Shown: positions 7,772 to 30,836, counted from the stretch's first letter. The stretch is 64,000 bases of DNA from Trypanosoma brucei (GCA_000002445.1 CM000208.1:3840001-3904000), one strand, 5' to 3'. Notes: a model not told the origin generated them from the sequence alone. Program-made: numbers and translations.

Positions 7772-9025
7772 ATGCGGTCATCTTCCGCCGCATCATCGAC
7801 TAGAGCCCTTACCCCTGGGAAGTTGAAGCAGCCAGGCTCCACGAGAGGGCTGAAGAGTACGCACTCCGGCAGTGAAGAAGCCGTCCTGAGCGATAAGTTG
7901 CTGCTGTTTTTACAGCAAAGTCGGGAACGGACATCCCATAATCATGCCGCGCGAATTTCCCTGCTGGAATCTCAGTACACACAAAGCCTCCACGGACTCT
8001 CAGGGGCCCGTGGTTCATCTACCCTCTTCACCGAAGCTTCACTGAATGCGCGAAAAGGTGGACGTCACGGCAGAGACCCTGCAGGAATTGTTGACAAGGA
8101 GATTGTTATTGAGGTTGATATGAGTGAAAGTGAGGATGAAGTATCGTCGCAACCGATAGAAACGAATCATAGGGCACAGCAGCGGGAACATGCAGCAACG
8201 CAGTTTTCGTCGGTTCGCCTGACGGCATCGTCCTGCAGGGTCACTGCCACCGCTGCTGCTACCGATCTCTCACCTCAGAGTCTGTCCGAATCGTATGGTG
8301 TATCTCCGGAGGTTCGTACACCCATTTCCCCTTTTATAGAAAAGATGCATTACCGCGAGGTTCTGTGCGCGCCTGAGCTGCCTCAGGGTCCTGAAAAGCG
8401 CAACAAGACTACAACCCACTACACGGCAACGGAATTGTCTCTTGGGAGGGCACAGGCGGGGGTGCGTGCCAATGTCGGGAGGGGTATGGTGTCCTCACTC
8501 CCCCCGTGTGCTGCGGCACGTAACGAAGTTTCTGTTTCACTAGAGCGAGCCATCAATGAGGCAAGGGACAAGCACAACTGGAGTGAGTCAACGACGGCAA
8601 ATGTTATGAGCCGTGGTACGACGACGGCCCCGCCCATGCTACCCCGTACCAATGCAGTGACATCTAAAGTGGATGACGAAGTGCAGCACTCCCCCCTCTT
8701 TCCGCACGAACCGGAGATAGAGGAGTTTCTCGCGTGGGAAGCGGCAAAACCCGCTGAGCTACTCAAATGCTTGCGTGCGGGCTTTAGCAACCACTGCCCC
8801 ATCGCAACCGCGTATGCCGCCGTGCGCCCCGAGGTCCATTGGCTCTCTCTGCTCTGCAACAGTGAATCGGATGTCAAGAGTGAAGCAAAGGGATCGCCAC
8901 TTCGACCGGACTCAGCTCCCTCGCGATTCATTGAGTGGATCGCATCTGACGTGGACTGCTATGAGGGACTGCTACTGCAACGGGGGGCTGTAGCGCCAAT
9001 TGTTGCCAGAAGTGCGAAGTCATAG
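7772..9025 (+). CDS. Hypothetical protein (Ser/Thr/Ala-rich, no recognisable domain)
   Basis: The track ORF starts at GTG 7742 and the first ATG is at 7772 (MRSSSAASS...). It is a long + strand ORF (417 aa) in the same orientation as its neighbours, preceded by a polypyrimidine tract. Confidence 0.55.
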   Translation: MRSSSAASSTRALTPGKLKQPGSTRGLKSTHSGSEEAVLSDKLLLFLQQSRERTSHNHAARISLLESQYTQSLHGLSGARGSSTLFTEASLNARKGGRHGRDPAGIVDKEIVIEVDMSESEDEVSSQPIETNHRAQQREHAATQFSSVRLTASSCRVTATAAATDLSPQSLSESYGVSPEVRTPISPFIEKMHYREVLCAPELPQGPEKRNKTTTHYTATELSLGRAQAGVRANVGRGMVSSLPPCAAARNEVSVSLERAINEARDKHNWSESTTANVMSRGTTTAPPMLPRTNAVTSKVDDEVQHSPLFPHEPEIEEFLAWEAAKPAELLKCLRAGFSNHCPIATAYAAVRPEVHWLSLLCNSESDVKSEAKGSPLRPDSAPSRFIEWIASDVDCYEGLLLQRGAVAPIVARSAKS

Positions 9026-10572: not shown

Positions 10573-12402
10573 ATGTCAGACGACGAGCACAAACGACACC
10601 CGCACGCACAACGTTCCCGCCATTCAACAGCGTCGCCAGGCATGATCGGTCATGATGGAAACTTCATGGAGAGCTTCAAAGACATGCTGGGCGATATATA
10701 TGCCCCGCTGAAGACAGGTCTGAAGTTGGAGCACGTAATTTATAATGCATGTTATATGCTTCTCATGTTATATGGTTTCTTTGATGTTGCAGATGCGTCA
10801 AAGCAGTGGGCGTCAGAATTCTACATTGAGCCACCGCGTTGGAGCATACTAACCATAACCTCTCTGGGTTCCACCGGCTATAACGGGACTGGGGACGCGC
10901 AATGGACTTCCATCGACAGGGGGTTTGGTCTCCTCCTCTCTGCGCTGGCGTTATTCGTTATCGGGGCCCGTGGTGTCCGCAGTGTTTTCCATGGGGAAAA
11001 TGGCGTGAAGGCGCTCCAGCGGTACTACTTGTTCGCCGGATTCCTCTTCACAGCCTTCTTGCACGGGCCCATGTTCTGGCTGCCGATTACCATAATTGCA
11101 CTTAACTACGTCTTCATTATAATCTTGCTGAAGATCAAGATGCCTCACTGGGTGCACATGGCAGTTATGTGGACGGCAGTGGTGTCGCTGATGCTTAGTG
11201 TGGGATACTATGGAGGTCGGTTGATCATTGGTCCGAGGAGACTTGGCTTTTGGGGAGGCATGGCCAGCTGGGTTCCCACGTTTAACATGTCTATCCTTCG
11301 CATGATTTCGTTTAACACAGATCTGTATGAAGCGATACACGCGAGCGCTCCTGCGCGGGCAACAACTACGAGGAAACACGATAACGGTTGCTTGGATTGT
11401 GCACGACTACGTGACAAACACCCGGAAAAAGAAGTAACTGCCGTGCGGTGTTACAAGTTTCGTTCAGAATACCCCCGCAATGTCAATGAGTACAATCTGC
11501 TGAGCTACATGGCGTACATGCTCTACCCGCCGCTGTACATCGGTGGGCCCATGTCTTCCTTCAATGCGTTTGCTTCACACTGCCAATATTCTACTGTTGC
11601 CATGACGAGGTCGCAGTTGATCGTTTACGGAATATTCATTATTATTCTATACGTTACTCAGGTGAGCATGCTACACTTTGTGTACCTGAGTGCTCTGCGG
11701 CAAAGGGGCGATCTCGTCATGAAACTGAGCACAACGCAAGCTGCTTTCATGCTGTACTATTCCTTGGCCTTCCTTTGGCTGAAGTTCTCCTTGGTTTGGA
11801 AGACGGGTCGCTTGGCTGCTGTTGCGGACGGGGTTGATGTGCCAGAGGACATGCGGCGCGCCTACAGCAACACGTTAAGTGTGCGAGACTTCTGGCGTGA
11901 TTGGCATGCCTCATTTAATGTGTGGGTTGTGCGCTACATGTACATTCCCATGGGGGGAAATAGACGGAAGTATTTCAGCATCCTTCCCATATTCTTCTTC
12001 ATTGCGGTATGGCATGATTTGGAACTCCACCTTATTGAGTGGGCGGTATGGATTATTGCCTTCTTTTTAGTTGAGCTTTTTGTTGGGTATCTATGGGGCC
12101 TGCCGTTATTTGCGCCGGTACGACACTCAAAGTACGAGCGCCTGCTAAGAAGTCTTGCTGGAATGGTCAGTGTTTTTGGACTTACAATCACGAACATGAT
12201 CGGCTTCGCTACCGTGGCAGCACCTCACGGAGGTTCATTGACAGCGCAGATTATTCTGCATATCCTTGGGACTCTTAACTTAACTCTATTCTTCTTCTTT
12301 TTACTATTTTTCTTTTTGCTCTCTGCCACGGGTGTTTTGCTTCGTGATGAAGAAGCAAATCAAATAAAGCAGCTCAAGGAAAGGTACGGTATAGTTCGTT
12401 GA
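10573..12402 (+). CDS. Membrane-bound O-acyltransferase (MBOAT family, GUP1/HHAT-like)
   Basis: The track ORF starts at GTG 10561 and the first ATG is at 10573 (MSDDEHKRH...). It is multi-pass hydrophobic. The MBOAT signature 'FWRDWHASFNVWVVRYMYIPMGG' matches GUP1 '[23 protein letters not shown]', and the downstream conserved His is in 'AVWHDLE'. Confidence 0.8.
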   Translation: MSDDEHKRHPHAQRSRHSTASPGMIGHDGNFMESFKDMLGDIYAPLKTGLKLEHVIYNACYMLLMLYGFFDVADASKQWASEFYIEPPRWSILTITSLGSTGYNGTGDAQWTSIDRGFGLLLSALALFVIGARGVRSVFHGENGVKALQRYYLFAGFLFTAFLHGPMFWLPITIIALNYVFIIILLKIKMPHWVHMAVMWTAVVSLMLSVGYYGGRLIIGPRRLGFWGGMASWVPTFNMSILRMISFNTDLYEAIHASAPARATTTRKHDNGCLDCARLRDKHPEKEVTAVRCYKFRSEYPRNVNEYNLLSYMAYMLYPPLYIGGPMSSFNAFASHCQYSTVAMTRSQLIVYGIFIIILYVTQVSMLHFVYLSALRQRGDLVMKLSTTQAAFMLYYSLAFLWLKFSLVWKTGRLAAVADGVDVPEDMRRAYSNTLSVRDFWRDWHASFNVWVVRYMYIPMGGNRRKYFSILPIFFFIAVWHDLELHLIEWAVWIIAFFLVELFVGYLWGLPLFAPVRHSKYERLLRSLAGMVSVFGLTITNMIGFATVAAPHGGSLTAQIILHILGTLNLTLFFFFLLFFFLLSATGVLLRDEEANQIKQLKERYGIVR

Positions 12403-13868
12403 GCTGCTTTATTTGATTGGAAACTGAGAGCTGATTGCGCTTCAGTAGTTGCACATTCCTTGTGTGTTCGCGCAACACATGAACCGTAAGATGTCAGACG
12501 TCTTGTGTGAAGTTTTTATACTTCATTTCTGAAAATCGTATAGTCATTTATCCTCTATCTCATCATTATTCTTTCCCTTCCTCTTTTGTTGCCGTTACTT
12601 AAATGGCTTGTTTGATTGTGTGTTTGTTTTCTTCTCGCTTAACCGTTGAATTCTATATACTTTGTTAATATTTTTTAAAAAAAAAAAAGGAAAAGGAAAG
12701 AAAAAAGGAAAACGGAATAAATGCACGGTGTGGGGGCATAATGAATTCCACAGAATGAAAAAAAAGGGGGGAAAGTAACTTGTAGGCAAGAAGCGGATCA
12801 AAATATCCGTAAAGGCGGTGGAATGAAAACAAGTAAAATAGAGGGCGTACGAAACGCTTTAAAAAGATAAATAAATAAATAATGGCGGTGTAGTCGAATA
12901 TATTTAACGATTATGACAAAGAGGGAAAAAAGAAAAAGAAAAAGGTAAGAGAAGGGCAGTCGGATTGTAGGGGTGTTTGTATGCACTACCCGACTCCGCT
13001 TTTGCGGCATAGTGATGATGACAGATGCGGGCAAGTATCTAAGTAAAATTAGTTCAGTCATCAATTTGCTCCTCTACTACCGCTCTTCGTCTGATTCCTA
13101 TTTTCGCTATGTGTTGTCATTTTCTTTTTTTTCTTTGTTTGCTTGTCTTTCTATCAGTGTTTTTTGTTTCTTTTTCTTTTTTATTTTTGTTTTTTCTCTT
13201 GATTTATCTCTTTTTTTAATCTTCACATTTCATTACTCGAAGTTGATTGAATGGAATTAACACATGGAATTGCAGCAAAAAGCAGAACACGGAATTGGAT
13301 AAAAATGGATTAGGCGAAACGCTTCACAAATGCTATTTGCATTTTGGCTCATACCAGACCGGGTAACCACCGCTACCGTCATCAACACTGCTGCCGCTGC
13401 TGCTGCTGAATCCTGAGTGAAGGTGCCAAAAAAAAAAAAAAAGAGAAAAGAGAAGAGAAGAAAAGAAAAATCAAACAAAAGAAAAAAATAGCACGGCAAC
13501 ATTTTCTCACCGCGACGAAGTCACCCAACAGCGCTTAAGACAAACAGCCAGTGGAAGATGTATTAAGTGTAATCGTACCGCTCCATTATTTTACGGTGCT
13601 GTTTTATTCCTTTCATTCTTTTCTTCGCCCCTTTGCTAGGCAGTGAAACGGGAATATACATATATGTGTGTATGTGTGTGTGTTTTTACTGTTGGTGCTT
13701 AGGCTGCTTTCTTTTCTTTTTATTTCTTCTTTTTTTGTTTTGCTTCCTATCTTCATGTCACTACAACCACTCTCCAAAAAAATAAAAACAACAACAACAA
13801 CACAATCCCAAGAAATCGACAGAGAAGGGGCTCAACCACAGTTCCACTCGCGCGTTGCTTTTTTACTC

Positions 13869-14088
13869 ATTACTTTCCTCAGGCATAAAATGTTTGGACG
13901 ACGCGTTTACGCCAGTGCGGCAGTTCCCCGCCGTATGTGGCCGGCACTTCACATTCAGAGCAGTAGCCAAGCACTGCGTATCCTTCCTTCACTCGCACCA
14001 CTTCACCCGACTATAACTCGGCATGTTGCACTTGTGTCCGCCCCGCTCACAAGCCTCTCCGCGGTCGGTTTGTGTGAATCCTCAACGG
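13869..14088 (+). repeat. Copy 2 of the 220-bp duplicated segment
   Basis: Identical to 9372..9591 over 220 bp. Confidence 0.85.
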
Positions 14089-24180: not shown

Positions 24181-25889
24181 GCCAGACGGGAATGAGCCGC
24201 GTCAACGAGGAGCAAATACCTTTTCCCGCATCCTCACCCCCCCCCCTCCCTTTCACAATTCAGAGTGAAGAAGTTGTGGGGTGGAGCGGGTACAAGGCAT
24301 ATGTTTTCGTGAAAAGTGGAGTGTTTAATTATCTGTTAGGAAGAGTCTTGGAATTGTATGGATGTGTCAAGAACTGGTGGAAATACAATTGAACTCCAGG
24401 AGGTGGTTTTCAGTATTCCGAAACACCCAGGAGGTAGTTTGGGTGCTCCACAACACCTGCATCGAAGCTGCCGACAGTGTCATAGGAAGATTAATTGGGG
24501 CTTTAACTCAGCCAAATCGCATCACAACGCCGTGGCAAACAAGGATTACGACAAATGTGGTGTTCTTAACTTTCCCTGTTCTCATTACGGACGGAGCTCC
24601 CCGCGCGGGAGCCCACAATGGAACGTTCTCCCGGAAAAAAAAAGTTTACATGTGTCCTGCCATTTAAAAGCCCTCCAGCGCGCGCGCATTTACCTCTGCT
24701 CGCTCCTATCGCCGTGGTACTGCTGCTTTATTTTAACACGCAGGGCTTAACGTACCACGCAAACACATCTTCTTTTGGGCGCTGAACGCGACAGGAGGAG
24801 AGTCGTTGCGCACGTTAAGGGGGAGGGGAGAATGAGGGGTGACAAACCTAATAGGAACTATGTTAGGAAGCAACACACTCCCACACGCTCGCATGGGCCG
24901 CCACGTGTGTCCACATTTTGGGGAGTCCAAATTGGAAAATTCCTCTTTATTACTCCCAAATCTAAGGGATGTATTACATTCTGCTGGTGAAGAAAAAAGG
25001 AAAATAAAAGTTTGTCACGCACTCTCTTCCTCAAGAAGTCCGGGTGTTGATAAGAGGACAACCGGCACTTTGAAAACCTATGCAAAGGCGGACGCTGATT
25101 GGCGTTGGTTTCTTAGGAGATAATGGCACCTTTAGGTGAGTACGTGGAGACCGCTCAAATGGAGGGGAAAGCAATTGTAATAACTATAGTCGAATTGAAA
25201 TGTTTGCAAGCATTTGTTCCCTATAGGATTGTATCCCTCGGTTCAGGTTTGCAACGGCCGTACAGTTATCTGCTGTATTAGTTTAACGTCACAAGCTTCT
25301 CAGGTGACATTTAACCAGGGTCAGAAAGACAAACTGCAGTCGTGTCTTCACAGGGTTCGAAGTAGGCACATCATCTGTCGAATTAAGGTCCTGTTAACAT
25401 GCAAATCTGAGGTATCTCATTTTTTGTATAGGGCATCCGAGCACCACATTCATATGTGTACGTGAATGGCGCGGTCACTCGAACAGCTGACCATCCTTTC
25501 TTTGCTACCGTGGAAATTACCACGGATTGGCTTGTGTGTCTTCTCGCGAGGGGACTTGCAGTATTTCTGCTGGTCGCTTACAGCTACCACGCAAATAGCG
25601 AACTAAACGGTCGGATTGAGGGCGAAGAATTAAGCCCCGCGTCACGACTTTGTGTTTCCCGCCTCTCTCTACATGGGATCACGACACTGCGCGGGCCACC
25701 CTCATACAGCGAAAGCGACTACTGTCAGAGCCTCCTCACAGCACAATTCACCACCAGACGTCATTTTGTTGCGTGACTCATGAACCTTCGGCGTCCACCC
25801 CACTGCCCCTTTGACCTACTCGATTAATCGGGGAGGCGTCGGTCGCATTTGACAGCAACACACCTCAGCTCATACGGAAGGGGGGAGCA

Positions 25890-26474
25890 GTGACTACCAT
25901 ACGTGAAGATGGGGAAGGTGTTGGTAAATACCTTCCGATAAGTGGGACCGTGTTTGTCATTGGCCTTTCCGTTCCAGATGTGAGGGAAATCGCGAGGAAA
26001 CTTGAAGAACGCAACGATTTGCGTGTTATTGTTCTCTTCGGGGAATTTTCATTACTGTATGATCTGTTTACCACGGCCCTCAACAACACCGCAGGCGCCG
26101 CACGTCTTGTGTTTGCCACCAGCTTGCCACATTGGGGTGATACTGAAACCTCATCGAAGACTGCTCAACTGTTCCATGATGTTGAAAAAGACTCACGATT
26201 GTGGACACCCCTATCACTTCTGGCATTCGCAACCGGTCGATTGATGCGGGTAATACTTCTTCATGTAGAAGAAATGAGTCCAGACACGTTGGTAAATTTC
26301 TTCTATGCCGATTCTTCCATCATCTCTGATGACATGCGCTACGGCGTATTCGACGACACAAAATGCGACACCGCGGAGAAACTTCCGAAGAATGATTGTG
26401 CCTCAAACTATGGCGCAACGCAGGTATCCGTGTGGTCTATGGCCCGTGCCCTCAACGCCTCCATTCCTCCACTT
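25890..26474 (+). pseudogene. Truncated fragment of a receptor-type adenylate cyclase extracellular domain (no ATG; ends in a microsatellite)
   Basis: The track ORF 25890..26750 begins at GTG with no in-frame ATG near the 5' end. Its translation 'VFATSLPHWGDTETSS...TPLSLLAFATGRLMRV...MRYGVFDDTKC...NYGATQVSVWSMARALNASIPPL' parallels residues about 640–820 of the downstream cyclase ('VLFATNLPHWADEITAS...TPLSLLGFATAYFMRV...MRYGPFADDGC...NYGATQISVWSMARALNASIPPL'). Homology stops at 26474, where a (TA)n repeat follows. Confidence 0.7.
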
Positions 26475-26497
26475 GCAGATTGCTTTTCTTCCACTTG

Positions 26498-26521
26498 TAT
26501 ATATATATATATATGTATATA
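26498..26521. repeat. (TA)n microsatellite at the truncation point of the cyclase fragment
   Basis: 'tatatatatatatatatgtatatat'. Confidence 0.9.
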
Positions 26522-27125
26522 TCTTCATCCATTAAATTCTCTGCTACCGTTTAAGTTTGGGTTGAGGCGAAAATGCCTTGGAGGCGAGGTGTGGAAATCA
26601 TCCAGGCAAAGGGTTATACGGGGTTACCTTCCAGCGTGTCTGCCATCAGTGATCTGGGTAGTGAAGCGCGGGTTGCTGGTGTGTGTCCCCCGTTTCGTTA
26701 CTGAATACGTCATGTCAGTCTTTCGGGGTTACGCAGCGTGTAGGAGGTAGGGGAGGAAGGCAACCCATAATGCACATGCGAAGAAGGTGAAGTGGTGTGG
26801 GAACATGTGTGCCGGCAAATGTCGTCAAGGGGCAAAATATTACAGGCATCGCCCACGGTCGATGAGACGCAAACTGGACCTTCAGTGTATGGGGAAAGTG
26901 ATTACAAAGTGGCTCATGGGCATCGATAGCTTGCTCGGAAGCACGGGTCACGGATGGTGGCGTGTGTTCAGTTTGTCTCGAAACCGTGCGGTGCGGTGAG
27001 TGCGGACTTTACTGCACATGCCGTAAGTACTGATACTCTCCTCAGTTCGCGTTCCTCTCCCCTACCAAATCCCTTCCCCCTTTTGTCTCCACACGAACAT
27101 AGTTTACTCGGTTAAACAGAAGACC

Positions 27126-30100
27126 ATGTGCGTTGGCACCCGTGCTGCTGGTTTTGGCGGCAGTGCCGCAGACACATCCATCGTAGTCGGTCCAGCACGG
27201 AGGAGATCCTACTGCGGCCGCGCCCTTGTTGGAGCGGCGCCGTTGCCAGTCTTACTGCTTCTGTTGCTGTCGGTAATGTGTGTGAAAGCCGATATAGAGA
27301 TCGAGGTTTTCTCTCTATTGCACCATCAGAAGATAGAGAAAAGGTTCGTTGAAGCGGTTAACGCTGGCTTCAACGCTTCCATGACCTCGCGCCGGTGGAA
27401 GACGGCACCCAGTGTGCACATCAAAGTCATGCATCCATTTACGCCCAGCGCGTCACCTGTTAGTGGCTTCCAACAGGCTGTGGAACGCAACAGGGGCAAA
27501 CTCTTCGTTGTAGTTGGACCCCTGGGCGATTTCGGCACCGTCTCGTCGCTCATTACACTACTGGCAGAACAGGATGTGGTCGCCTTCGCGCCCCTAACTG
27601 GATCAAGTGGGGGTCGTGGGTGGAACCCTAATCTATACTTCACGCGTGCTTCTCCATCCGCAGAGCTACTGGCGCTCATCCGATACGCGTTGGGCCGGCT
27701 ACGTACAATTCGATTGGGTTTCATGTACCTTCACAATGTCTTCTTCGGGGTGGAGGAATATGACGTCGCCCAGCGCATATTGCGTCGCATGGGTTATGGA
27801 TTTTGCGGTGTTTTCACTTTAAGTAGCTCACTGACCGGGGTTGCGAGCACCAGACACTTCGATTCCGCTTGGAATACGTTTGTGGAAAGTCGTCCACAGG
27901 CTGTGATTGTGTTCGCTCCCCCCGTGGGGGATACGGCAAGGTTCATACGAAACCTGGTTGCTGACAGTCGCACGAGAAGTGCGTACGTGCTTGTTCCGTC
28001 GATGCTCCAGTTTGCCATTGAGAACATGTGGCGCGAGGCGCTGGCCTTTGCCGATAGCCCATTTGTGGATGGGCAAGTTGTGGTAACGGGAACCAACCCA
28101 CTTGCAAGGGACACACAGTATCACGCTATCCGACGGTTTCAGAGAGACGTGAGGTCGTATCTAAAATCGAACCCGGGTGTAACGGTCTTCAATGCCTCGA
28201 GCAATTTCGATCACGATGACATAGATGGGCAGTTGTTGGTTTATGGATGGATCACTGGTGAGGTGTTAGCTCAGGCGTTGAGCGTGCCCGAGCGTCTGAC
28301 TGACAGAAAAACATTTATGCAATCGTTGTATGACCAGCGGCGATACGTAATTGATGACCTTGTGATTGGAGACTATGGTGGTGAGTGCGCTGGTTGGGCA
28401 GCCGGTCAGGGAGCAATGTGCTGGTGCAACCAGGGGGGGAACACGGTGCACGTAAGGGTGATCAGTAGAGGCTACCGGCTGCTGGATGCACCCGATGGAA
28501 TTATGATGTTTGACTCTTCTCACTGCTACCCTAGCGAGGTCGAAATGCAGGCTCCGTTCAATGGTGTGTCTGTTCTGATACCGGATAGACCAACCGCATT
28601 GCATGCTGCTGTAGAAATGGAAGAGGGCGCCTCTCTACTCGAAGTGAGGGAGCACAACCAAGACAGCAGGCTGTTTTTCGACACCATCGTCTCGCCTTTC
28701 AGCGGAGCCGCCGAGGAGTTGCAGCGGGAGTGGTCCACGAAGATCACCACGGCTGTGCTGGGTGTTGTGGATGAAGCAATGCTAAAAACACCCGGTGTCG
28801 CGTTCATTGACCCGGTGCCGCTCGCGCCGCGACTGAACAAAATGGAAAGGAATGTTATTCATCTCTCGCCAACCCTGGAACAGCAATTTTATGTGTGCAC
28901 GTCGTATCTTTCGAGGAACGACAAAAAACGTCTGCATATCGTTATCCGCAGTATCGATGCGGCCGCAATCGAGGATGTTCTGAAGAAAACCCTTGCGACG
29001 TTCAGTGTGGAACCGCAGTCAGTGGTAGTGCTGGACGGCAACGCCACGGTAGAGGGCCACCTGCCTGACAGTGGGGATGTTTACGTCATCGGCCTCACGG
29101 CAGCTGATCCCGTAGTGATTGCGGCCCATCTCAATAGTCATGATAGTGCTCGTGTGTTCGTTCCATTTTTCGATGTAGTACTGCTTCATGAAGAATTTTT
29201 TAACGCGTTCGAAGGCGTCTCGAGTGCTGATCGCGTCCTCTTCGCCACTAACCTACCACATTGGGCGGACGAGATCACAGCGTCAGAGGTTGTACAGAAA
29301 TTCTACACAGCGGAAAGAAATGCATCACGGCGAACGCCGCTCTCGCTTCTAGGATTTGCCACAGCGTATTTCATGCGGGTTATTATTTCCCCGATGAAGG
29401 CTATGAACGCAACTGCGCTTGTTGACTCCATTTTTGCTCAATCTGTAGTCAACGTCGGTGAGATGCGCTACGGCCCCTTCGCCGATGACGGTTGTTTTCT
29501 GAAAGGAGTGCCGCGTTTGACAGGTTGTGCCGTTAACTATGGCGCAACGCAGATATCCGTGTGGTCTATGGCCCGTGCCCTCAACGCCTCCATTCCTCCA
29601 CTTACAAATCCCATGACACCGTCAATGAGGTACTTGGACCCGGACGCCGGTAAACTTTCACGGGGACAACTTGCTGGCGTAATCGCCAGTTCCATTCTCG
29701 TCGCACTGCTTCTTGTGGCTCTGACTACGGTGCTGCTGCATGTCTCGCGACACAACACCCGTGATAACAACAGCGCGCCAAAGGAGCCCACAGAGCCTGT
29801 GACAATTGTTTTCACAGATATTGAAAGCAGCACGGCACAGTGGGCTGCCCACCCCGATGTCATGGCTGATGCTGTCGCCGCACACCACAAGTTGATCCGC
29901 GCGCTGATCTCCCAGTACGAGTGTTACGAGGTGAAGACCGTTGGGGACTCGTTCATGATCGCGAGCCGAAGTGCGTTTATGGCGGTGCAACTTGTGCGGG
30001 ATCTGCAGAGGGCGTTCCTTCGCCACGACTGGGGCGCGTCCGTGTTTGACGAGTATTATCGCAGTCTTGAGCAGGACCGTGCGTCAGAAAGTGAGGGATA

Positions 30101-30836
30101 CGTGCCGCCAACCGCACGCCTGGACCCCGACGTGTACCGAAAGTTGTGGAATGGCCTCCGAGTGCGAGTTGGTGTGCACACCGGATTGTGTGACATTCGC
30201 CACGATGAGGTGACAAAGGGTTACGACTACTATGGTCATACGTCGAACATGGCTGCCCGCACAGAGAGCGCTGCGAATGGTGGACAGATATTGCTGACAC
30301 GTGCAACATACCTTTCGCTAAGCACAGCAGAGCGTGAGCAACTTGACGTCACTGCGCTGGGCGCCGTCCCACTGCGTGGCGTTCCCGATCCGGTCGAAAT
30401 GTACCAAGTTGATGCTGTGGTCGGTCGGTCCTTCGCTGCACTGCGCCTCGACGGGGAAGTCGATCTGGTCGCTGAAAGTGAATTAGCTGTTTGCCACGCC
30501 AGTGACACCAGTTCAGCTACTACTGCCCTGGATGAATCATCGCAGATCATCACCAGCTGCTTTGAGACGCTGCTTGGCGCATTCACTCCTTCCAAGCGGC
30601 GAGACCTGCTGTTGCCTATCTGCGAGCGTTGGCGTGTGACGTTGCCACAGAAAACCAAGTCCGTGTGGGATGATAACGACTGTCAGGAGGTTATGCGGCG
30701 TATAGCAACAAAAGTGGGCCGTGTGGTGGACTTCCATGTTGTGGATGACGGCGGTTGCTCGACGGAAACAGTAAGCAGTGCATCGGTGATTATTATATCT
30801 AATCATGTGGAGGATTTCACCGCGCATCAAACTTAG
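27126..30836 (+). CDS. Receptor-type adenylate cyclase (GRESAG4/ESAG4-like): signal peptide, large extracellular VFT-like region, single TM, class III cyclase catalytic domain
   Basis: ATG start; 1236 aa. The N-terminal signal 'AAPLPVLLLLLLSVMCVKA', a TM helix 'AGVIASSILVALLLVALTTVLL', and a catalytic domain 'VTIVFTDIESSTAQWA...YEVKTVGDSFMIAS...VRVGVHTGLCD...YYGHTSNMAARTESAANGGQILLT' carrying class III cyclase signatures. This architecture is characteristic of trypanosomatid receptor adenylate cyclases. Confidence 0.9.
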   Translation: MCVGTRAAGFGGSAADTSIVVGPARRRSYCGRALVGAAPLPVLLLLLLSVMCVKADIEIEVFSLLHHQKIEKRFVEAVNAGFNASMTSRRWKTAPSVHIKVMHPFTPSASPVSGFQQAVERNRGKLFVVVGPLGDFGTVSSLITLLAEQDVVAFAPLTGSSGGRGWNPNLYFTRASPSAELLALIRYALGRLRTIRLGFMYLHNVFFGVEEYDVAQRILRRMGYGFCGVFTLSSSLTGVASTRHFDSAWNTFVESRPQAVIVFAPPVGDTARFIRNLVADSRTRSAYVLVPSMLQFAIENMWREALAFADSPFVDGQVVVTGTNPLARDTQYHAIRRFQRDVRSYLKSNPGVTVFNASSNFDHDDIDGQLLVYGWITGEVLAQALSVPERLTDRKTFMQSLYDQRRYVIDDLVIGDYGGECAGWAAGQGAMCWCNQGGNTVHVRVISRGYRLLDAPDGIMMFDSSHCYPSEVEMQAPFNGVSVLIPDRPTALHAAVEMEEGASLLEVREHNQDSRLFFDTIVSPFSGAAEELQREWSTKITTAVLGVVDEAMLKTPGVAFIDPVPLAPRLNKMERNVIHLSPTLEQQFYVCTSYLSRNDKKRLHIVIRSIDAAAIEDVLKKTLATFSVEPQSVVVLDGNATVEGHLPDSGDVYVIGLTAADPVVIAAHLNSHDSARVFVPFFDVVLLHEEFFNAFEGVSSADRVLFATNLPHWADEITASEVVQKFYTAERNASRRTPLSLLGFATAYFMRVIISPMKAMNATALVDSIFAQSVVNVGEMRYGPFADDGCFLKGVPRLTGCAVNYGATQISVWSMARALNASIPPLTNPMTPSMRYLDPDAGKLSRGQLAGVIASSILVALLLVALTTVLLHVSRHNTRDNNSAPKEPTEPVTIVFTDIESSTAQWAAHPDVMADAVAAHHKLIRALISQYECYEVKTVGDSFMIASRSAFMAVQLVRDLQRAFLRHDWGASVFDEYYRSLEQDRASESEGYVPPTARLDPDVYRKLWNGLRVRVGVHTGLCDIRHDEVTKGYDYYGHTSNMAARTESAANGGQILLTRATYLSLSTAEREQLDVTALGAVPLRGVPDPVEMYQVDAVVGRSFAALRLDGEVDLVAESELAVCHASDTSSATTALDESSQIITSCFETLLGAFTPSKRRDLLLPICERWRVTLPQKTKSVWDDNDCQEVMRRIATKVGRVVDFHVVDDGGCSTETVSSASVIIISNHVEDFTAHQT

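Follow-up and report, generated by a model that had tools for sequence, protein, structure and literature searches.

An ESAG4 relic and a short ESAG4-type block in the adjacent receptor adenylate cyclase gene on Trypanosoma brucei chromosome 10

When a truncated gene fragment and an intact gene of the same family stand close together and share one short, almost identical patch, which of the two carries the foreign sequence, and from where did it come? This question is raised by a 64,000-nucleotide (nt) stretch of chromosome 10 of Trypanosoma brucei brucei TREU927 (hereafter the window), in which a fragment of a receptor-type adenylate cyclase gene and an intact gene for such a cyclase lie 3.1 kb apart in direct orientation. 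A first-pass annotation, made from the sequence alone, took the fragment for an old, diverged duplicate of the neighbour in which a 67-bp tract had lately been overwritten by the functional gene. Here we report that the fragment is an internal relic of an ESAG4 gene and not a decayed duplicate of its neighbour, whereas the intact gene, which belongs to another cyclase subfamily, contains a 94-nt block of ESAG4 type that is the actual conversion tract. We consider it probable that this block was placed in the intact gene by short-tract gene conversion, with the local ESAG4-clade relic as the most likely partner.

The fragment is a relic of an ESAG4 gene

The patch shared by the fragment and the intact gene is real. 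Positions 26406..26474 of the fragment (+ strand, 69 nt, encoding NYGATQVSVWSMARALNASIPPL) match 29535..29603 of the intact gene at 68 of 69 positions, the sole mismatch being G at 26424 against A at 29553; the single-base difference reported earlier between 26408..26474 and 29537..29603 is correct, and the identity starts two bases before it. On the 5' side of the patch the fragment and the neighbour share 49.9% of their nucleotides, in agreement with the first estimate that roughly half of them differ, together with 31% of third positions and 39% of amino acids, while inside the patch the corresponding values are 95%, 96% and 92%. Residues identical in the two proteins are encoded by identical codons in 24 of 24 cases in the patch but in 25 of 64 cases elsewhere, and the chance of the former is ~1e-10 (0.39^24) if the codons are assumed to be independent. 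The codon flanking the patch differs at all three positions (TCA versus GTT). Similarity thus switches abruptly and locally, synonymous sites included, in the manner expected of gene conversion. The patch is a footprint of recombination, as first proposed; the assignment of the mosaic to the fragment is what did not survive.

The link to ESAG4 was made by retrieving cyclases with the intact gene and then comparing the fragment with them by BLASTP. Its 195 amino acids (aa) are 88-93% identical to 18 ESAG4 proteins, among them Lister 427 expression-site copies and sequences from TREU927, T. evansi and T. b. gambiense, compared with 47% to the neighbour and no more than 62% to other cyclases. At the DNA level the relic occupies 25898..26480 (+ strand, 583 bp) and corresponds to nt 1929-2514 of the ESAG4 coding sequence (CDS), or aa ~644-838, with both ends truncated. 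Over 586 nt it is 93.2% identical to an ESAG4 gene at the right end of chromosome 10 of T. b. gambiense DAL972 (L002:5101-8907) and 92.0% identical to one from T. equiperdum (L003:10001-13807), the two genes that served as DNA references, with one in-frame 3-nt indel. These two reference genes are themselves 93.9% identical across the same segment, and therefore the relic falls inside the diversity of the ESAG4 clade; by sequence it groups with the expression-site ESAG4 copies and not with internal paralogues. Its identity to ESAG4 is uniform from end to end, patch included. Along the fragment, identity is uneven against the neighbour, but the affinity to ESAG4 does not change across the patch. 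The ~50% divergence from the neighbour arises because ESAG4 and its paralogues are that far apart, and the view of the fragment as a diverged pseudo-copy of the neighbour with a foreign patch had to be given up.

A functional ESAG4/GRESAG4 cyclase has a signal sequence, two periplasmic-binding-protein-like ectodomains (PF25495 and PF25493), a transmembrane span and a class III catalytic domain (PF00211). On the relic, Pfam detected only PF25493, at positions 165-372 of 373, which is the C-terminal 55% of the membrane-proximal periplasmic-binding-protein-like domain; PF25495 and PF00211 are absent, and the relic does not have the architecture of a functional receptor cyclase. Because only a part of PF25493 is present and the other two domains are missing, the fragment is a gene relic and not a functional member of the family. 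In this respect the earlier description was accurate, both in calling it a truncated cyclase gene fragment, as it is cut at both ends, and in placing it in the distal ectodomain at about residues 640-820 of the intact gene, to residues 636-837 of which it aligns. With no initiating ATG, signal peptide, transmembrane span or catalytic domain, it is truncated as a pseudogene is. The open reading frame (ORF) of 25890..26474 that had been described as lacking an ATG needs adjustment: the stop-free frame holding the relic is 25815..26750 (+ strand, 311 codons followed by TAG) and reads through a (TA)n microsatellite into unrelated sequence. This frame has indeed no ATG at its 5' end, but in-frame ATGs are present internally. 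Its T. b. gambiense counterpart is annotated as a CDS (L001:7860-8738, where L001 is the orthologous DAL972 locus on chromosome 10, FN554973.1, at ~3.83 of 3.90 Mb).

The relic is not situated in a telomeric VSG expression site with flanking ESAGs. Its place is the chromosome 10 core, in a + strand cluster of housekeeping genes, with a lipase gene on one side and the intact cyclase gene on the other. To learn how the relic might have arrived, its flanks were compared with ESAG4 flanks and other repeats, and no similarity was found in the window or the fetched loci. An imperfect 12-nt direct repeat on the + strand (26464-26475, TTCCTCCACTTG; 26486-26497, TTCTTCCACTTG) brackets the 3' breakpoint of the relic and abuts the (TA)n microsatellite (26498..26522), the length of which varies between strains. 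Judged from this arrangement, the direct repeat may be a footprint of microhomology or slippage left by the truncation of the relic. The microsatellite, which had been put forward as a break or recombination site, starts 17 nt past the 3' end of the relic, downstream of the point at which similarity ends, and we no longer assign it that role.

The intact gene carries an ESAG4-type block

The intact receptor-type adenylate cyclase gene (27126..30836, + strand) encodes a protein of 1236 aa that is identical to XP_828069.1 / EAN78957.1 (TREU927, 4.05-Mb record) and in which PF25495, PF25493 and PF00211 are all present. By position and annotation it is probably Tb927.10.16190 (AC2/ACP2; PMC4534343). 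The protein shares 99% identity with one from chromosome 10 of DAL972 that bears the annotation "ESAG4, putative"; it is a member of a subfamily other than ESAG4 and is only ~50% identical to ESAG4.

When this gene was compared with ESAG4 in a codon-aligned sliding window, a baseline of 55% nucleotide identity and 36% third-position identity was interrupted by a single sharp peak at 29514-29630. The ESAG4-type block within it (29535..29628, + strand) is 94 nt long and encodes NYGATQISVWSMARALNASIPPLTNPMTPSM, in the ectodomain immediately preceding the membrane span. Of its positions, 88/94 and 90/94 are the same in the two ESAG4 genes, and 24-27 of its 31 third positions agree with ESAG4 against a baseline of 0.35 (binomial P 2e-6 and 3e-9); no third-position excess was seen in the block for the T. 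congolense orthologue (L004), a paralogue from the chromosome 4 array (L005) or one from the chromosome 7 array (L006) (P 0.2-0.99). The phylogenetic affinities of the block and of the remainder of the gene are incongruent. Outside the block, the gene is nearest to its T. congolense orthologue (62.6% nucleotide identity), with chromosome 4 paralogues at 57% and ESAG4 at 54%, whereas the block alone matches ESAG4 and the relic at 84-89 of 93 positions and the other sequences at 62-66 of 93. The intact gene is therefore a chimaera.

The block also shows that homology does not stop exactly at the end of the shared tract, as had been stated: it runs 25 nt past the 3' end of the relic, these bases beyond the last homologous base of the relic being ACAAATCCCATGACACCGTCAATGA. 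Because the block in the neighbour continues over these 25 nt, position 26480 is the point at which the relic was truncated and not the end of the tract. Apart from the block, comparison of the intact gene with ESAG4 gave a second, lower peak at 28824-28900, outside the part covered by the relic, with nucleotide identity of 0.77-0.78 and third-position identity of 0.60-0.75 in windows of 16-20 codons.

Conservation across the cyclase family served as a control. In the 69-nt core, the other paralogues and the T. congolense orthologue are identical at only 45-53 positions (65-77%) although they encode nearly the same motif, and therefore conservation across the family fails to explain the block. 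Among 18 other pairs of paralogues, the longest stretch with no more than one mismatch was 21-34 nt, and the best 96-nt window reached 75-86 matches and was always found in the catalytic domain; between the intact gene and ESAG4, the longest such stretch is 44-51 nt and the best window, with 88-90 of 96 matches, lies in the ectodomain. On the core identities, the third-position test and the 18-pair control taken together, we rejected family-wide nucleotide conservation of the motif. The same survey revealed that some catalytic-domain segments reach 83-86/96, third positions being highly identical too, between paralogues which are otherwise ~55% identical. Such peaks were seen in L004, L005, L006, L007 and window 29760-30400, one of the pairs being two T. 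congolense genes, and they could reflect either strong codon-level constraint or additional conversion.

Probable local exchange and its direction

Of all sequences compared, the relic is the closest known relative of the block: its core matches the intact gene at 68/69 positions, compared with 63-65/69 for the two ESAG4 genes and the lower values of the other paralogues given above. Variants are also shared within strains, the strain comparison being made between two, TREU927 and DAL972. The relic and the gene of TREU927 both have C at 26453/29582, and every other sequence has G there. At 26424/29553, all relic copies have G (Val), whereas the TREU927 gene and all 18 ESAG4 proteins have Ile, both sequenced ESAG4 genes having A at this site; the DAL972 intact gene carries the relic's G/Val at the equivalent position. 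The intact genes of the two strains differ at 32 sites, and the 69-nt core, an interval specified beforehand, contains four of them (P 0.002-0.007). These data indicate that exchange occurred after the strains diverged, at least once from the relic to the functional gene, and the earlier idea of an exchange in cis over 3 kb is supported. A second cluster of strain differences in the intact gene, five of the 32, was noticed at window 29780-29834, directly behind the membrane span, with a scan-statistic P of 0.057; at four of these five sites DAL972 agrees with at least one of the sampled ESAG4 genes, which hints at another small exchange.

The DAL972 locus contains two nearly identical copies of the relic (L001:7943-9361), one on either side of a 100-N gap (8739-8838). 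Copy A (L001:7943-8738) continues in the register of ESAG4 to nt 2726 and then runs into the gap, and copy B (L001:8840-9361) has the truncation and the (TA)n as in TREU927; over 522 nt the two copies differ by 2 nt and one indel. Given the gap, the pair may be a tandem duplication, an unmerged allele or a mis-join. A longer relic of this kind would suit as donor of the full 94-nt block. In copy A the last ~75 nt (L001:8660-8738), which align to window 29753-29825, are almost the same as in the intact gene and unlike ESAG4; this end of the copy, cut short by the gap, may be a second conversion tract, formed from the gene to the relic.

What the relic is, that the block exists with the stated extent and specificity, and that variants are shared in each strain are all seen directly in the comparisons; the mechanism, the local partner, the direction and the anchoring by microhomology are inferred. 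How, then, could the block have entered the intact gene? We infer a short-tract gene conversion, either homologous or primed by microhomology, in which the partner would have been the adjacent relic at a time when it was longer, or a longer allele of it. The block is edged by motifs that the family conserves at the nucleotide level, 5' by AACTATGG... and 3' by ...ACACCGTCA; the chromosome 4 paralogue also has AACTATGGCGCAACGC, and the T. congolense orthologue also has ACACCGTCA. The first exchange could have been anchored by these motifs, at its initiation or its resolution, and RAD51-type recombination or microhomology could be involved. Once in place, the block would reinforce itself: ~70-94 nt of near-perfect homology would permit repeated exchange, and therefore the relic and the gene would evolve in concert within a strain. 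Such a later round would have carried the relic-specific G at 26424 (Ile to Val) into the intact T. b. gambiense gene, and the relic appears to keep swapping segments with the telomeric ESAG4 pool.

As to the original transfer, sequence comparison favours the movement of ESAG4-type sequence into the intact gene. Two residues of the intact T. brucei gene, the Ile of NASI and the Met of PMTPSM, mark the ESAG4 clade in both T. brucei and T. congolense. Neither is present in the gene's orthologue in T. congolense, which reads NVSA and PVTPSI, or in the closest T. brucei paralogues of the gene, which read NASV and PVTPLI. The event could instead be old and reversed, with a block native to the lineage of the intact gene that was copied into an ancestor of ESAG4 and inherited by all ESAG4 copies and by the relic; the likeness of relic and neighbour would then be mostly common descent with some later local homogenisation. 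We regard this as improbable, although it has several points in its favour. Within the block, ESAG4 and the intact gene differ at 4-9 of 93 positions, about as much as ESAG4 copies differ from each other (5/93 in the block, 8.4% overall), and these values are so similar that the event might go back to the time when ESAG4 arose; the two sampled ESAG4 genes lack the codons GCC TCC, which the relic and the intact gene share with the chromosome 4 paralogue; and the outgroup test was not significant. The diagnostic Ile and Met, present in the T. brucei gene and missing from its orthologue and closest paralogues, nevertheless speak against such a reversal. It also needs spread to, or inheritance by, every ESAG4 copy, while the other direction needs one event, and it leaves the relic-specific Val in the T. 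b. gambiense gene unexplained.

A different donor would keep the direction but make the relic a bystander, the ESAG4-type sequence having come from a telomeric or subtelomeric ESAG4. The 25 nt of the block past the end of the TREU927 relic are identical to ESAG4, a full ESAG4 gene is present at the right end of T. b. gambiense chromosome 10, ~54 kb away, and the T. b. gambiense intact gene matches this chromosome-end ESAG4 at sites 29543, 29579 and 29582. We nevertheless think such a donor clearly unlikely. Neither ESAG4 gene is as near to the block core as the relic is, the derived C at 26453/29582 occurs only in the relic and the gene of TREU927, the relic-specific G is present in the T. b. 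gambiense gene, and ectopic exchange in trans has seldom been observed for T. brucei arrays (PMC1855330).

Little credit is left for the model with which the locus was first described, an old and diverged duplicate whose 67-bp tract was lately overwritten by its functional neighbour. It drew on the near-identity of the patch to the neighbour against ~50% in the remainder, and some flow from the neighbour to the relic within the block may have occurred, as the shared C at 26453/29582 could have passed either way. The supposedly diverged part is, however, 92-93% identical to ESAG4 with no change in affinity across the patch, the affinity switch sits in the neighbour, and the model is refuted as stated. 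That no recombination took place at all, the block being a constrained motif with constrained codons or an assembly artefact, can practically be set aside: NYGAT..WS..R is among the most conserved parts of the ectodomain and paralogues do reach 86/96 in catalytic-domain parts, but other paralogues, which encode almost the same residues there, have a core identity of only 65-77%, identity at synonymous sites is limited to the ESAG4 clade and this one gene, and the block is found in two independent assemblies as well as in the ESAG4 genes of T. b. gambiense and T. equiperdum.

Several points weigh against our preferred reading, conversion of the intact gene with the relic as partner. As the block extends 25 nt past the TREU927 relic, the donor must have been either a longer relic or a telomeric ESAG4, and the longer relic is seen only in DAL972 beside the gap, where an allelic form, a tandem copy and a mis-join are all conceivable. 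The direction depends on very few sites, and the outgroup test was weak: the T. brucei block matches T. congolense ESAG4-like sequence at 65-67/93 and the T. congolense orthologue at 61-62/93, which is not a significant difference. The argument for concerted evolution draws on two strains and 2-4 informative sites, and the clustering of strain differences in the core is not decisive by itself because the second cluster, at 29780-29834, has a P of only 0.057. Finally, paralogue windows reach 86/96 in the catalytic domain, so that 88-90/96 is an outlier but not an extreme one.

The relic also differs from what neutral decay would produce, namely stops, frameshifts and a dN/dS near 1. Its frame is open across all 195 homologous codons, its only indel is in frame, and its dN/dS (omega) ranges from 0.14 to 0.33. 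Between the strains, the relic has diverged by ~3% (15-17/522), compared with 1.1-1.7% in the flanking DNA, with a synonymous divergence (dS) of 0.084 and an omega of 0.14. Four of the five residues that differ between the relics (R/K, G/A, L/F, T/A) are polymorphic among expression-site ESAG4 copies, and several of the nucleotide differences match one or the other ESAG4 gene. The simplest reading of these patterns is that the relic has been repeatedly overwritten in segments by functional ESAG4 copies, rather than maintained by selection on the relic itself; such overwriting would account for its frame staying open. Sorting of old alleles is an alternative explanation for the divergence of the relic.

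A more speculative extension, which we put forward tentatively and hold to be doubtful, is that the internal relic acts as a stepping stone, being overwritten from the telomeric, bloodstream-stage ESAG4 pool and passing short tracts on to the adjacent cyclase. If so, variation of expression sites would leak into the juxtamembrane ectodomain of a receptor encoded in a housekeeping region, and a dead fragment, kept open-framed, would be useful as a conversion template outside the VSG system. The recipient would probably be the insect-stage flagellar cyclase ACP2.

As for the surroundings of the compared genes, all large ORFs of the window are on the + strand, as expected of a trypanosomatid polycistronic unit, and window 12001-14000 is AT-rich (GC 0.40 versus ~0.51 in the remaining window). 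In DAL972, the full-length ESAG4 and then a 676-aa gene (L002:5101-11816) lie on the reverse strand within the last 19 kb of chromosome 10, at its extreme right end and on the strand opposite to the intact cyclase. In the T. equiperdum sequence (L003), ESAG4 is followed by a leucine-rich repeat (LRR; ESAG8-like) gene and retroelement ORFs. No cyclase fragment was found 5' of the T. congolense orthologue, where synteny was not evident.

Meaning of the locus and comparison with known systems

The analysis changes how this locus is to be read: the small ORF, for which T. b. gambiense has a CDS annotation, is a relic of ESAG4, and the cyclase gene next to it is chimaeric over 94 nt. The block can distort phylogenies and "ESAG4-like" labels for the intact gene, and RNA interference (RNAi) or probe designs that span it could also hit ESAG4. 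The locus would offer a compact, cis-linked case of flow from a pseudogene to a gene between diverged cyclase subfamilies; in earlier surveys, exchange was mostly found among near-identical tandem copies or among telomeric copies. We found no description of this relic and cyclase in the literature, including searches for Tb927.10.16180 and the protein accessions.

In antigenic variation, mosaic VSG genes are formed by segmental gene conversion with pseudogenes as donors. The present case is alike in that a pseudogene would give short segments to an expressed gene. Unlike VSG mosaics, the locus has neither an expression-site context nor 70-bp repeats and gives no sign of selection for new antigens, and the visible outcome is a single conservative Ile/Val difference.

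Closer parallels exist within the cyclases and the ESAGs. Cyclase gene fragments are prevalent in T. brucei (PMC7719234), and partial gene conversion has been documented in its tandem arrays, including a cyclase array, while ectopic exchange was seldom seen (Jackson 2007, BMC Evol Biol 7:54; PMC1855330). That array, Tb62 (Tb927.7.6080), resembles our locus in its short chimaeric tracts between receptor cyclase genes in cis, in the local switch of affinity and in the concerted evolution of neighbours. Its partners, however, are near-identical tandem duplicates, whereas here a 583-bp ESAG4 relic faces an intact gene with ~55% DNA identity, and the tract, unlike those of the array, is very short (94 nt) and bounded by family-conserved motifs.

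ESAGs themselves are known to be mosaics with short tracts, the mean lengths of which range from 90 bp upward, and it has been proposed that corrupted copies act as donors (Hertz-Fowler et al. 2008, PLoS One 3:e3527; PMC2567434); internal and telomeric ESAG copies are said to evolve differently (PMC2567434). Our locus shares with these mosaics the ESAG4 family, the similar size of the tract and a corrupted copy as the likely donor, and the strain differences of the relic likewise reshuffle standing ESAG4 polymorphisms. The expression-site mosaics concern telomeric copies, whereas here a chromosome-internal piece of ESAG4 would exchange with an internal gene that is not ESAG4. The case is thus a new example of a known process and involves no new mechanism; its modest twist is that a relic of the ESAG4 clade at an internal locus exchanges with a diverged gene outside that clade.

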